Below are positions 21,411-24,900 of a DNA stretch of 32,118 bases, in pieces; position 1 is the stretch's first letter; every line of letters starts with the position of its first letter. The notes under the pieces were generated by a model. It was not told where the DNA came from, ran no database searches, and saw only the letters and a program-made list of their open reading frames with translations. This DNA comes from Peduovirus P24B2: the sequence record NC_049387.1; one strand, 5' to 3'. A program made the position numbers and the translations under genes.

Positions 21411-22573
21411 TGCTGGATGCACTGACATTTGATGCAGGCAGTACGCTGACGCCGGATTACATGCTGATGCTCGACAGCAGGGATATTACCGGCAATATCA
21501 GCGACCGTCTGATGAGCATGACCCTGACGGATAACCGGGGCTTTGAGGCTGACCAGCTTGATATTGAACTGGACGATGCCGACGGGCAGGTCGGGCTGCC
21601 GGTTCGTGGCGCTGTCCTGACGGTGTATATCGGCTGGAAAGGTTTTGCCCTGGTATGCAAAGGGAAATTTACCGTTGATGAGGTTGAACACCGGGGCGCA
21701 CCGGATGTGGTCACCATCCGCGCCCGGAGTGCAGATTTTCGCGGGACGCTCAATTCCCGCCGGGAAGGCTCATGGCATGACACCACGCTCGGTGCGATTG
21801 TTGAGGCGATAGCCTCCCGTAACAGGCTGGAAGCCAGTGTCGCGCCGTCACTGGCCAGAATTAAAATTCCGCACATCGACCAGTCGCAGGAGTCTGATGC
21901 AAAATTCCTGACCCGCCTTGCAGAACGCAACGGCGGTGAGGTGTCGGTAAAAATGGGAAAACTGTTGTTTCTCAAAGCGGGGCAGGGGGTGACGGCCAGC
22001 GGTAAAAAAATCCCGCATATTACCATCACCCGCAGTGACGGCGACCGCCATCATTTTGCGATTGCTGACCGTGGAGCCTATACCGGCGTAACAGCAAAGT
22101 GGTTACACACCAAAGACCCGAAACCGCAAAAGCGGAAGGTAAAACTGAAACGCAAAAAGAAAGAAAAACACCTGCGCGCACTGGAGCACCCGAAAGCGAA
22201 ACCGGTCAGGCAGAAGAAAGCGCCTAAAGTACCGGAAGCGCGCGAAGGTGAATACATGGCCGGTGAGGCTGATAACGTTTTTGCCCTGACTACGGTATAT
22301 GCCACGAAAGCGCAGGCCATGCGCGCCGCTCAGGCGAAGTGGGATAAACTGCAACGGGGCGTAGCGGAGTTCTCCATCAGCCTGGCTACCGGTCGGGCAG
22401 ATATTTACACGGAAACACCGGTTAAAGTGTCAGGCTTTAAGCGCGTCATAGACGAGCAGGACTGGACAATCACTAAGGTGACACATTTTCTGAATAATAG
22501 CGGCTTCACGACGTCCTTGGAGCTTGAGGTCAGGCTTTCTGATGTGGAGTACGAAACAGAAGATAATGAGTGA
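21410..22573 (+). CDS. D: tail protein D (late gene D)
   Basis: 387-aa ORF with internal Lys-rich segment (KRKVKLKRKKKEKH); P2 gpD size and position before ogr. Confidence 0.9.
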   Translation: MLDALTFDAGSTLTPDYMLMLDSRDITGNISDRLMSMTLTDNRGFEADQLDIELDDADGQVGLPVRGAVLTVYIGWKGFALVCKGKFTVDEVEHRGAPDVVTIRARSADFRGTLNSRREGSWHDTTLGAIVEAIASRNRLEASVAPSLARIKIPHIDQSQESDAKFLTRLAERNGGEVSVKMGKLLFLKAGQGVTASGKKIPHITITRSDGDRHHFAIADRGAYTGVTAKWLHTKDPKPQKRKVKLKRKKKEKHLRALEHPKAKPVRQKKAPKVPEAREGEYMAGEADNVFALTTVYATKAQAMRAAQAKWDKLQRGVAEFSISLATGRADIYTETPVKVSGFKRVIDEQDWTITKVTHFLNNSGFTTSLELEVRLSDVEYETEDNE

Positions 22574-22657
22574 TGTTTTTATTTTATCTGTTTGTTTTAT
22601 AAGGATAAATTAACTAAAATGGCACCATCAACAAAACCGGAAGAGGTGCTCGCGATG

Positions 22658-22873
22658 TTTCATTGTCCTTTATGCCAGCATGCCGCACATGCGCGTACAA
22701 GCCGCTATATCACTGACACGACAAAAGAGCGTTATCACCAGTGTCAGAACGTGAATTGCAGTGCCACGTTCATCACTTATGAGTCGGTACAGCGATACAT
22801 CGTGAAGCCGGGAGAAGTCCACGCCGTAAGGCCGCACCCGTTGCCGTCAGGGCAGCAAATTATGTGGATGTGA
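22658..22873 (+). CDS. ogr: late-gene transcriptional activator Ogr (C4 zinc finger)
   Basis: 72-aa product MFHCPLCQHAAHARTSRYITDTTKERYHQCQNVNCSATF... with CxxC...CxxxxC arrangement; start chosen inside ORF 22592..22873 to match the 72-aa Ogr length. Confidence 0.85.
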   Translation, partial: FHCPLCQHAAHARTSRYITDTTKERYHQCQNVNCSATFITYESVQRYIVKPGEVHAVRPHPLPSGQQIMWM

Positions 22874-22883
22874 TCACAAAAAT

Positions 22884-22909
22884 AGCCCCTCAGTTGAGGG
22901 GCTTTATTT
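22884..22909 (+). terminator. rho-independent terminator after ogr
   Basis: Stem agcccctc(22884-22891)/gaggggct(22896-22903), loop agtt, followed by a T-rich tract TTATTTA. Confidence 0.6.
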
Positions 22910-22910
22910 A

Positions 22911-23147
22911 TGGTCGATGTGGACGCTATGTGGACAGTGGTTGATATAAATCCATTTATATCATCAGGTTAGGTGCTTTTTTGTGACACCATCCCTGTCT
23001 TCCCCCACATGATGTGGGGGTTTTTTTTATCAATTACTTACATGCAATCAAAAGTAAAAACAGTCACTTATCGAAAGCTGTAAGGGTTTGGAGTGGTTTC
23101 AAAATTTCTTGAGTGTGGACACTATGTGGACACTCAGAGGGGGAAAT
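22911..23147. other. attP: attP region (arm-type repeats, IHF-consensus site, core candidate)
   Basis: Tandem ATGTGGAC repeats at 22917-22924 and 22928-22935, and TGTGGACA repeats at 23115-23122 and 23125-23132, flank the region; TATCAATTACTTA (23029-23041) matches the IHF consensus WATCAANNNNTTR; hairpin plus T8 at 23002-23028; abuts the int 3' end. Confidence 0.5.
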
Positions 23148-24128
23148 TTATAACGTCACTCCGCCTTTTAGTGGATTCAGAGCGACGGCATTTTGCAGGT
23201 AGTCAGGCGCAAGGTGCGCATAGGCCATCGTCTGCTGAATGCTCGCATGTCCCAGAATCTGTTGCAGTGCGATTATATTGCCCCCGTTCATCATGAAATG
23301 GCTTGCGAATGTATGCCGCAGGATGTGGGTTGCCTGATTGGGTGGTATATCAGGTTTCACTCTGCGTAAAATCCCGCAAAATTTCTCATAATCAACTTTG
23401 AATAATTTGGCGCTTGCCTCCTCTTTAACTTTTTTCTCCAGTTCCTCAGAAATCGGCACGGTTCGCTTTTTACCGTTTTTGGTTTTCAGGAAGGTAACCC
23501 TGCAATTTGTAATCTGTGCTGGTTTTAGCGTGGCAACTTCCGTCCATCTTCCTCCAGTGCTCAGACATAAAAGCGCGACAAGTAAGTCATCACCAGCCAA
23601 AACATTTAACAGTTTTTCGATTTCTGCTTTTTCCAGGAACGTCATTTCAGGGTTGGCCTCCGCCAGTGGCGGCAGTCCGTGAATTGGGTGTTGCCCGGAA
23701 AATTCATCCAATTGAATTAATTTTGTGAACATGCCGGATAATCGGTACATGTCACGGTTTATCGTTGCGGCACTGATACCATCACGTAGTCGTATGGAAC
23801 GATAATCCATCAAAGCCCTTTTGCTCATCCGGCTCACTGGTATATCACCTATGCCGCTGATGGTTTTGAGTAGATGATTAAACTCTTTTGTTCCATGCTC
23901 GTGGTTTTGCCCGTGATATTTCCACCAGATGTCCAGCAACTCACTCAAAGTTCGGCGGTCTGCTCGCTGGCCTCCCCATTCTTTCTGACTGGCATTGGCG
24001 ATTGTGTATCGCTCAAATGCTAGTGCTTCAGCTTTTCTTTCGAATTTCCTGCGGATGCGTTTTCCGTCGCGACCGCGAGGTCTAATGTCCACTTCATAGC
24101 GACCATCATCGAGCTTCTTAATTGCCAT
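23148..24128 (-). CDS. int: tyrosine integrase
   Basis: ORF 23148..24158; start placed at MAIKKLDDGRYEVDIRP; C-terminal region HxLRHTFAS...Y (catalytic-Tyr region) typical of tyrosine recombinases; P2 Int position downstream of C. Confidence 0.9.
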   Translation of the reverse strand: MAIKKLDDGRYEVDIRPRGRDGKRIRRKFERKAEALAFERYTIANASQKEWGGQRADRRTLSELLDIWWKYHGQNHEHGTKEFNHLLKTISGIGDIPVSRMSKRALMDYRSIRLRDGISAATINRDMYRLSGMFTKLIQLDEFSGQHPIHGLPPLAEANPEMTFLEKAEIEKLLNVLAGDDLLVALLCLSTGGRWTEVATLKPAQITNCRVTFLKTKNGKKRTVPISEELEKKVKEEASAKLFKVDYEKFCGILRRVKPDIPPNQATHILRHTFASHFMMNGGNIIALQQILGHASIQQTMAYAHLAPDYLQNAVALNPLKGGVTL

Positions 24129-24197
24129 AAGAAAGCCCTCCGGCGCTGTATTCACCATCTTGGTAGCAAATGGTGAAAATGTAATCTTTATATAGAG

Positions 24198-24491
24198 TTA
24201 GCCAATCCTTTTCGCGGAGTGGTTGGACTCTGTTGACTCTGGCCCAATGTGCGCGAGAGCCGGTGCGATTTGTCCTGCGTCCGGCGCGGTTTTATCTGTC
24301 ATAAGCCATAGAGCATATTTTTGGAATGTGGGATGCATAGTGATTTTTAGCAAAGCTGTGCCACCGGGTTCAAAGTTTCCTCCTTCATATTTTTTAAGTG
24401 TGCTTAGCGGTAACTCTATGATTTCACAGAATTTTGATTGGCTTAGCCCTTCAGCCTCACGCAAGGCCTTAATCTTTTCGCTTAATTTCAT
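24198..24491 (-). CDS. C: immunity repressor C
   Basis: 97-aa ORF with helix-turn-helix-like N-terminus and the segment GQIAPALAH that I recall from P2 C (99 aa); divergent from cox. Confidence 0.8.
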   Translation of the reverse strand: MKLSEKIKALREAEGLSQSKFCEIIELPLSTLKKYEGGNFEPGGTALLKITMHPTFQKYALWLMTDKTAPDAGQIAPALAHIGPESTESNHSAKRIG

Positions 24492-24627
24492 TTGACATGG
24501 TGCCTATATAGGGACTAAATTCCCTCAAAACTGGAACCTATATAGGTTCCATTGATTTGAGAATAAACCAGCGTCTAAACGGTTTTGAGTGGTTTAGAAA
24601 GGGCTGGATCCTATGAGGGTACCATAT
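24492..24627. promoter_or_regulatory. C/cox lysogeny-lysis switch region (candidate Pe/Pc promoters and operators)
   Basis: Consensus -35 TTGACA at 24492-24497 with a possible -10 CTAAAT at 24515-24520 (rightward, Pe-like); two copies of the palindrome CCTATATAGG at 24503-24512 and 24537-24546 (second inside an 18-bp perfect palindrome GGAACCTATATAGGTTCC, 24533-24550); motif GGTTTTGAGTGGTTT at 24581-24595. Confidence 0.5.
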
Positions 24628-24900
24628 ATGGACGCTGAAAATTATGTGATTCAGTATCCGCTTGATGCGGTTCATGTGGATAAATTTGCTGATTTATTAG
24701 GGAAGCCAAAGACAGCCGTCAGTGAAATGGTGAAGGCAAATAAATTACCAATTATTGAATTGCGTGATCCTTGCAAACCGAAGGCTCGTGCCGGTGAAAA
24801 ATGGGTTTTCATTCCTGAGTTTAATCGCGCTGTACGTGAGGCGTTTTATAACCGACCGGTTGAACAGCGTGATGCATGGCTTTTGTGGATGGGGTTGTGA
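24628..24900 (+). CDS. cox: Cox excisionase/repressor
   Basis: ORF 24613..24900; start placed at the second Met (MDAENYV, 90 aa) because of the better SD (GAGGG) and P2 Cox being about 91 aa; first gene of the rightward early operon. Confidence 0.75.
   Translation: MDAENYVIQYPLDAVHVDKFADLLGKPKTAVSEMVKANKLPIIELRDPCKPKARAGEKWVFIPEFNRAVREAFYNRPVEQRDAWLLWMGL

Follow-up and report, generated by a model that had tools for sequence, protein, structure and literature searches.

The attachment site of Peduovirus P24B2 between ogr and int, with strand exchange in the 3′ end of cpxP/CpxQ just upstream of its terminator

Gene neighbourhood and layout of the ogr-int interval

The window, i.e., the entire stretch of 32,118 nucleotides of Peduovirus P24B2 DNA (NC_049387.1) that was analysed, contains a 273-bp spacer between ogr and int, while the repressor gene C and cox (24613-24900) are located beyond int. 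Cox and Ogr match their own Pfam families. The features of this region are as follows, with coordinates referring to the window.

22655-22873, plus strand: ogr, encoding the late-gene activator, left neighbour of attP (Pfam Ogr_Delta, 1e-21; annotated as ogr in L-413C and WΦ)
22884-22903, plus strand, with a hairpin that reads on both strands: intrinsic terminator of ogr and the late operon (terminator scan; homologue of an annotated P2 terminator)
22917-22936, plus strand: P arm with two putative arm-type Int sites, (A)TGTGGAC (repeats; homologue of the ‘Int P arm’ feature of P2; tgTGGaCa, PMC3448106)
22959-22971, plus strand: IHF-like site of the P arm, TATCATCAGGTTA, with one mismatch (homologue of the annotated IHF site of P2, at the same 30-bp offset)
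22985-23031, plus strand: 47-bp block of identity between attP and attB, GACACCATCCCTGTCTTCCCCCACATGATGTGGGGGTTTTTTTTATC, the core in the wide sense (present as an unoccupied site in at least 4,400 E. coli genomes; both prophage junctions; identical in WΦ and L-413C)
22986-23008, plus strand: segment that must hold the core-type Int sites and the strand-exchange (overlap) region (the only stretch common to both SCU-171 junctions; invariant in 26 of 26 related sites)
23002-23028, plus strand: phage copy of the cpxP terminator and CpxQ 3′ end (identical to the E. coli cpxP terminator; 8-bp stem, 3-nt loop, T8)
23028-23040, plus strand: exact match to the IHF consensus, TATCAATTACTTA, adjoining the core, a candidate H′-like site (match to WATCAANNNNTTR; first four bases within the identity block)
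About 23060-23070, plus strand: second conserved P′ motif, CAGTCACTTA (ACAG-N2-ACTTA), a candidate protein box (~30 bp past the T-run)
23085-23104, plus strand: candidate boxes for Cox, the excision/directionality factor, with GGTTT twice at a 10-bp period (GGTTTNGAGTGGTTT at 23085-23099)
23113-23132, plus strand: P′ arm with two putative arm-type Int sites, TGTGGACA, at 23114 and 23125 (repeats; corresponds to the ‘Int P′ arm’ feature of P2)
23148-24128, minus strand: int, encoding a heterobivalent tyrosine integrase (Pfam Int_N and Phage_integrase)
24581-24595, plus strand: partner copy of the Cox-box candidate, GGTTTNGAGTGGTTT, in the early control region upstream of cox

The segment that spans ogr, the spacer, int and C (22600-24200) exhibits 99.4% identity to Yersinia phage L-413C and 96% identity to coliphage WΦ, and many other Peduovirus genomes are likewise 96% identical to it. 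The interval between ogr and int is almost certainly the attP of a P2-like (Peduovirus) phage with the integration specificity of WΦ and L-413C. An attP annotation is absent from the L-413C and WΦ records and is present in the reference P2 record (AF063097), where ogr and a terminator are followed by the annotated Int P arm, the IHF feature, the attP core, Cox and an Int P′ arm that overlaps the end of int. The order proposed for the window is the same.

Overall, the integrase of the window and P2 Int share 52% identity; over the first ~45 residues, which constitute the arm-binding domain, identity reaches ~80%, while the core-binding region has diverged much further. The presence in the two phages of shared arm sites together with different cores is consistent with this pattern. 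The longest int open reading frame (23148-24158, 336 aa) begins ten codons upstream of the conserved MAIKKLDD start, which is the int start in the P2, L-413C and WΦ annotations, and the true int gene is probably 23148-24128.

Read from ogr towards int, the proposed attachment site would begin with the ogr terminator and the arm-type pair of Int sites of the P arm, followed by the IHF site that corresponds to that of P2 and by the core; beyond the core would come the cpxP terminator in its phage copy, a further IHF-consensus site, the Cox boxes, the P′ pair of arm-type Int sites and the int stop codon. The N-terminal domain of Int would contact the arm repeats and its central domain the core, with the arms being bent by IHF. 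The assignment of a given protein to a given motif, as well as the exact positions of cleavage, is deduced from sequence and is accordingly worded as a prediction below.

Arm-type repeats on both sides of the core

The heptamer TGTGGAC occurs five times in the 32-kb window, and four of these copies, at 22918, 22929, 23114 and 23125, are on the plus strand of the ogr-int spacer. They form two 19-nt units (22918-22936 and 23114-23132) that are 95% alike and that each contain two copies spaced 11 bp apart. When the window was simulated with a first-order Markov model, neither arrangement was reproduced: a cluster of four copies on one strand within 250 bp arose in 0 of 5,000 simulations, and even a single pair with 11-bp spacing in 0 of 2,000. 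The consensus of the arm sites of P2-type phages has been reported as tgTGGaCa (Nilsson et al. 2011, PMC3448106), and at least two direct repeats of this sequence are present on each side of the core in the window. A preliminary description of this DNA had noted paired direct repeats on each side, with coordinates that are right to within one base, and had placed their copies about one helical turn apart, in line with the 11 bp measured in both pairs; its suggestion that these repeats are integrase arm-type sites agrees with the published consensus, and they are regarded here as putative binding sites for the N-terminal domain of Int.

The bacterial attachment site between cpxP and fieF

Of 5,426 complete E. 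coli genomes that were searched with the 273-bp spacer, none contains it in full, and 4,493 contain part of it, mostly as a match of exactly 47 bp that corresponds to positions 22985-23031 of the window. In E. coli, this 47-bp block lies between cpxP and fieF, 24 bp past the cpxP stop codon, and the empty site was recognized in at least 4,400 of the 5,426 genomes. Lysogens produce two longer spacer matches, i.e., 22875-23031 and 22985-23147, and both types of junction were found, one with the order cpxP, core, P′ arm and int, and the other with the order ogr, P arm, core and fieF. A 127-nt probe for the fieF-side junction was covered over at least 80% of its length in 786 genomes. The corresponding 127-nt probe for the cpxP side, which covers the L-413C-type P′ arm only and does not extend to WΦ-type prophages, was covered to at least 80% in 530 genomes. 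A prophage therefore occupies the cpxP-fieF site in at least 786, or at least 14% (approximately one in seven), of the complete E. coli genomes.

The identity of the site, its attB and both of its junctions are established directly by these matches. The search of bacterial genomes that the preliminary description had recommended for its 23000-23030 segment thus returns attB, the target being cpxP with its 3′UTR-derived small RNA CpxQ, and the prophage junctions map inside the interval it had delimited, at 22985-23031. It has previously been reported that WΦ and L-413C share a single attB coordinate in MG1655 and have identical cores (Nilsson et al. 2011, PMC3448106). The attP site and the class of its mechanism are therefore already known, and the P2-type mechanism of integration is left unchanged by the present results; what is gained for annotation is that the attP, attB and junctions of Peduovirus P24B2 are now fixed.

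In E. coli GN02461 (locus L095, 151-343), a copy of IS200C is inserted directly after the T-run of the cpxP terminator; a mobile element of a second type thus also targets the terminator hairpin in this strain.

The identity block as the 3′ end of CpxQ

The hairpin in the spacer is formed by the stem CCCCCACA/TGTGGGGG at 23002-23020, with eight base pairs (23002-23009 with 23013-23020) and a 3-nt loop, followed by T8 at 23021-23028. Its RNA fold has a free energy of -19.7 kcal/mol (z = -2.6), and the terminator scan calls it on the plus strand, in addition to the ogr terminator at 22884-22903. The preliminary description had correctly read this element at 23002-23028 as a plus-strand terminator distinct from the one that follows ogr, while its 7-bp stem is one pair short. 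The E. coli sequence past the cpxP stop codon reads TAAACCCTG TTTTCCTTGCCATA GACACCATCCCTGTCTTCCCCCACATGATGTGGGGGTTTTTTTT ATC..., and the hairpin with its T8 is, as judged from this identity, the cpxP terminator.

CpxQ, which was named in 2012 and characterised in 2016, is part of the envelope-stress response. Its 5′ end is taken here to lie at the processing site near the cpxP stop codon (full length ~58-60 nt), following Chao and Vogel 2016. The identity block corresponds to the last 44 nt of CpxQ plus three further bases; in the 14 nt upstream of these 44 nt the phage differs from the host, and full-length CpxQ is absent from the phage. CpxQ is an Hfq-dependent small RNA of ~60 nt that is processed from the cpxP 3′UTR, nearly all of which it spans (PMC9438474, PMC4817254). 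Following integration, cpxP/CpxQ would end in the hairpin and T-run supplied by the phage and would thereby remain intact, while the original hairpin of the host would end up downstream of ogr, in front of fieF. This corresponds to the earlier proposal that a terminator copy carried by the phage is often a sign that integration targets a host gene at its 3′ end, which the phage then rebuilds; the gene in question is cpxP/CpxQ.

It may be asked whether the CpxQ fragment also serves the phage itself, either as a second terminator that keeps late transcription out of int or as a shortened CpxQ-like RNA that disturbs the envelope-stress response. The fragment does constitute a complete and strong terminator on the ogr strand, directly past the ogr terminator, and 44 of the ~58-60 nt of CpxQ are present in it, among them those of the Hfq-type 3′ end. 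Such a function is nevertheless considered very unlikely: no promoter-like site was found upstream of the fragment in 22000-23000, the 5′ 14 nt of CpxQ are missing, the CyaR piece carried by P2 is incomplete and inverted, so that an independent role would not be shared by the whole family, and reconstitution of the target gene fully accounts for the phage copy.

The published attB of WΦ and L-413C consequently coincides with the small RNA CpxQ. Full-text searches of the searchable literature returned no paper that links the WΦ/L-413C attB, or prophage integration, with CpxQ or cpxP. A forward-strand CpxQ family in Rfam gave no match in either the phage copy of the window or the E. coli cpxP 3′UTR. 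The Rfam model RF02628 (Hrs1, Erwinia Hfq-regulated sRNA 1) produces sub-threshold matches on the reverse strand of the cpxP 3′UTR/CpxQ, with 44.5 bits in E. coli (locus L004, 2472-2544, minus strand) and 31.8 bits in the phage copy (window 22962-23028, minus strand), and may correspond to CpxQ modelled on the opposite strand.

Strand exchange to the left of the hairpin

Two lysogens, strains 120899 and SCU-171, carry alleles from which the point of exchange within the identity block can be located. Some empty sites of E. coli possess a G-to-T variant at 23020 (G4T9 instead of G5T8), while G5T8 is found in all phage genomes of the TGTGGAC type that were examined. The G4T9 variant was observed in 11 lysogens at the fieF-side junction and in none at the cpxP-side junction, the probe for the latter being confined to the L-413C-type P′ flank. 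In strain 120899, a WΦ-type lysogen for which both junctions could be read, the cpxP side carries G5T8, the phage allele, and the fieF side G4T9, the host variant; position 23020 therefore lies to the right of the crossover. For a phage of the window type itself, this is the only usable polymorphic position, and it is located in a homopolymer run.

A related prophage in E. coli SCU-171 provides a finer resolution. Its cpxP-side junction reads CCCCCACGTGACGTGGGGGTCTTTTTTTTCAACG, while the fieF-side junction is native, CCCCCACATGATGTGGGGGTTTTTTTTATCC, and the two differ at five window positions, i.e., 23009, 23013, 23022, 23029 and 23030. At each of the five, the cpxP-side junction carries the phage allele and the fieF-side junction the native one, from which it follows that the crossover is to the left of 23009. 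The sole sequence common to both SCU-171 junctions is ACACCATCCCTGTCTTCCCCCAC (22986-23008). The SCU-171 element is a relative of the phage in the window: the attL closest to its own is that of the IMG/VR locus L057 (92.8% identical to the SCU-171 attL), whose Int is 65% identical to that of the window. The element itself (loci L178, 1-500, and L179, 8650-8830) is a lambdoid prophage of ~47 kb, with a Q antiterminator, a lambda-like head and tail and gpJ, which carries a P2-type int/C/cox module and P2-like arm repeats and occupies the same cpxP-fieF site. The cpxP/CpxQ terminator at this site is altered, with a G-C pair in place of an A-T pair in the stem and a U-tail that is interrupted by a C.

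Comparison with other lineages leads to the same segment. In other phage lineages, identity with the host begins only at CACC (22987), and CACCATCCCTGTCTT is invariant in 26 related attP or junction sequences, which come from Escherichia and ten further genera (11 in all). The hairpins of the same 26 sequences vary in a compensatory manner, by A-T to T-A or A-T to G-C replacements or by wholly different stems. When the geometry of the P2 P arm is transferred to the window, the centre of the P2 core falls near 22990.

The preliminary description had put forward the hairpin with its T8 as a core candidate, and a crossover within the hairpin was weighed seriously because the spacing on the P′ side matches that of P2. 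In such an arrangement, the arms CCCCCA and TGGGGG would be inverted core-type Int sites that flank a 7-bp overlap, CATGATG (23008-23014). A dyad with a 7-bp spacer is the classical shape of a tyrosine-recombinase core, the P2 core also has a CCC...GGG dyad, and the P′ repeats are at +103 and +114 from the hairpin centre, near the ~+100 and ~+110 of P2. However, the innermost stem positions of SCU-171 (23009 and 23013) carry phage alleles on the cpxP side and host alleles on the fieF side, which is impossible inside an overlap region; hairpin sequences vary widely among the Int relatives, whereas CACCATCCCTGTCTT is invariant; and the P-side spacing relative to P2 puts the core centre near 22990. 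A crossover in the hairpin loop was rejected on the allele segregation of SCU-171 and is deemed highly improbable. The hairpin does lie inside the identity block, but the alleles of 120899 and SCU-171 place the crossover to its left, at or before 23008.

The crossover is consequently located within 22986-23008, inside CpxQ and just upstream of the terminator. Strands would be exchanged here with the identical sequence in the cpxP 3′UTR of E. coli. Since allele segregation puts the exchange to the left of the hairpin, the latter is a replacement of the gene end that is supplied by the phage, and not the crossover point. As strand exchange occurs upstream of the terminator, the terminator of cpxP/CpxQ in lysogens is phage DNA, and some related prophages install an altered terminator.

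Predicted IHF-type sites on both sides of the crossover

The alignment of the window with P2 is confined to the terminator, the P arm and the IHF region (window 22884-22963, 78% identity). Both the P2 sequence TTTCAATTTATTG, which is located in the annotated IHF feature, and TATCATCAGGTTA in the window (22959-22971) begin at a distance of 30 bp from the first base of the proximal arm repeat, and both are preceded by the same AAATCC(A/T)TTTAT motif. In phage ev239, an exact IHF consensus is found at the same offset. The site at 22959-22971, which was missing from the preliminary description, is regarded as homologous to the P2 site that is annotated as bound by IHF, a prediction based on sequence and spacing. 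The IHF region of the P arm also contains a perfect, A/T-rich 10-nt palindrome, TGATATAAAT/ATTTATATCA (22942-22963), and its P2 counterpart, GAAATAAATCCTTTTATTTC, is palindromic too.

The second IHF-type site is at 23028-23040. It is indeed an exact match to the consensus, as had been noted, but starts one base to the left of the 23029-23041 initially assigned to it. Its first base is the last T of the terminator and its first four bases, TATC, are fixed by identity with the host, past which the host attB diverges. The site starts ~30 bp from a crossover taken at ~22990-23000, which leaves room for Int on the core. We take this distance of ~+30 from the crossover to resemble that of the lambda H′ site. 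Among 26 related attP or attL sequences, 24 have no or one mismatch to the IHF consensus at the equivalent position, while the four free (N4) positions of the same 26 sites are occupied by 13 different tetranucleotides and the flanks are randomised. Retention of the specified bases together with variation of the free bases points to selection for a factor that is common to hosts of many genera, for which IHF is the obvious candidate, and binding of IHF at 23028-23040 is on this pattern the somewhat favoured prediction. A second IHF-like site adjoining the core is preserved throughout the family.

There is, however, a considerable chance that 23028-23040 is not an IHF site at all, that the P-arm site is the only one, and that the motif is either fortuitous or a target of Cox, Int or Fis. 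The window contains two exact matches to WATCAANNNNTTR where 1.37 are expected, so that the match by itself is not above chance, and the TATC is accounted for by host identity. P2 has only one annotated IHF site, which lies across the core from the equivalent of 23028-23040. Furthermore, conservation also covers an AC in places that the IHF consensus does not specify, and ACAG-N2-ACTTA, a similar motif, is found again 30 bp further along, a pattern more suggestive of a repeated box for some protein. These points have to be set against the retention of CAA...TTA in 24 of the 26 sites, even though the corresponding integrases span 59-100% identity to the query and the Cox types differ, and against the randomised N positions and flanks, which point to a conserved host factor.

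The ACAG-N2-ACTTA motif, at about 23060-23070 in the window, was matched as a regular expression in 19 of the 26 relatives, in 17 of them at an offset of 27-31 nt past the T-run. It resembles the right half of the IHF-consensus site.

Candidate Cox boxes between the core and the P′ arm

In the window, the 15-nt sequence GGTTTNGAGTGGTTT occurs at 23085-23099 and at 24581-24595 only, where 0.3 occurrences are expected at up to two mismatches. WΦ possesses a different box, CCTA(T/G)AAGGGACTGGA, which is common to the same two places. Cox of phage P2 binds both the switch region and attP, in the latter case between the core and the P′ arm (PMC3936717). Since the pair of boxes mirrors this arrangement, 23085-23104, on which the preliminary description was silent, is likely to be a site for the directionality factor Cox.

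Comparison with related and classical attachment sites

The attP sites of WΦ and L-413C are the nearest counterparts of that in the window: the 47-bp core and the arm repeats are identical, the attB is in the same cpxP-fieF intergenic region, and the int genes are 96-99% identical at the DNA level. The IHF-consensus motif is TATCAATTACTTA in L-413C, as in the window, and TATCAATCACTTA in WΦ. The middle of the P′ arm (23041-23110), including the candidate Cox boxes, is L-413C-like and unlike that of WΦ, to which attP as a whole is 89% identical.

P2 shares with the window the arm consensus, the 30-bp spacing between the proximal P repeat and the IHF site, which is predicted in the case of the window, and a homologous Int N-terminal domain. 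It differs in its core, which comprises 27 bp at the end of CyaR in inverted orientation, and also in its attB and its Cox boxes. The second IHF-consensus site adjoining the core, which is present in the window, is lacking in P2. Moreover, the P′ side of the window is ~20 bp longer, with 185 bp between the proximal repeats as compared to 163 bp in P2, and this side is not a simple copy of that of P2.

The lambda attP, with its IHF sites H1, H2 and H′, Xis and a heterobivalent integrase, resembles the proposed site in that one integrase bridges arm and core sites, IHF bends both arms and a directionality factor binds between the core and one arm. The lambda integrase is, however, a distant tyrosine-recombinase relative, the arm and core sequences are different, and Cox doubles as a repressor of the lysis-lysogeny switch. 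The identity block is also much longer than that of lambda because it rebuilds a gene end.

In this last respect, the window is more akin to phage 186, which integrates in the gene for tRNA-Ile, and to Fels-2 and SopEΦ, which integrate in ssrA, in each case with a replacement copy (PMC3448106). In these phages, as in the window, the identity block extends from the crossover to the 3′ end of an RNA gene that is restored with phage sequence. The targets of the 186 and Fels-2/SopEΦ type are tRNA, tmRNA and small-RNA genes, while that of the window is CpxQ, a small RNA derived from an mRNA 3′UTR.

Relatives in other genera and small-RNA 3′ ends as landing sites

A scan of GTDB species representatives based on Int detected relatives (59-100% identical) at the cpxP 3′UTR in ten other genera, represented by Kosakonia, Citrobacter, Yokenella, Serratia, Yersinia aldovae, Pseudocitrobacter, Rosenbergiella, Acerihabitans, Brenneria and Xenorhabdus (loci L098-L111, L131 and L133). 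When species-representative genomes were scanned for exact occurrences of the cpxP-side junction GATGTGGGGKTTTTTTTTATCANNNNACTTA, no match was obtained. The IMG/VR loci recovered with Int mostly end at the int stop codon, and approximately 8 of 80 reach the att region. A matching attB had not been found in the Yersinia genomes available to Nilsson et al. in 2011 (PMC3448106). The Y. aldovae junction combines the conserved left core with a different hairpin.

The 27-bp attP core of P2 (locus L003, 357-383) is the reverse complement of the 3′-terminal 27 nt of CyaR, and the Rfam CyaR_RyeE match in E. coli ST69 (100.7 bits; locus L180, 401-490) overlaps the match to the P2 core. With P2 in CyaR and the WΦ/L-413C group in CpxQ, two specificities of the phage family are directed at the 3′ termini of small RNAs that depend on Hfq, the orientation relative to int being opposite in the two.

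A broader, speculative reading, which is considered rather improbable in its entirety, would hold that integrases of the P2 family systematically land in the 3′ ends of Hfq-dependent small RNAs, that heterologous prophages rewrite such 3′ ends, since the prophage supplies a new terminator, that lysogeny could in this way tune the non-coding arm of the Cpx response, and that the core-adjoining IHF-consensus site, which is found in ten genera and is absent from P2, is a lineage-specific addition to the intasome. The hot spot concerned is occupied in at least 14% of the complete E. coli genomes, and the response that would be tuned is the one to envelope stress. SCU-171 would represent an instance of such rewriting, its CpxQ ending with a stem strengthened by a G-C pair and with an interrupted U-tail.
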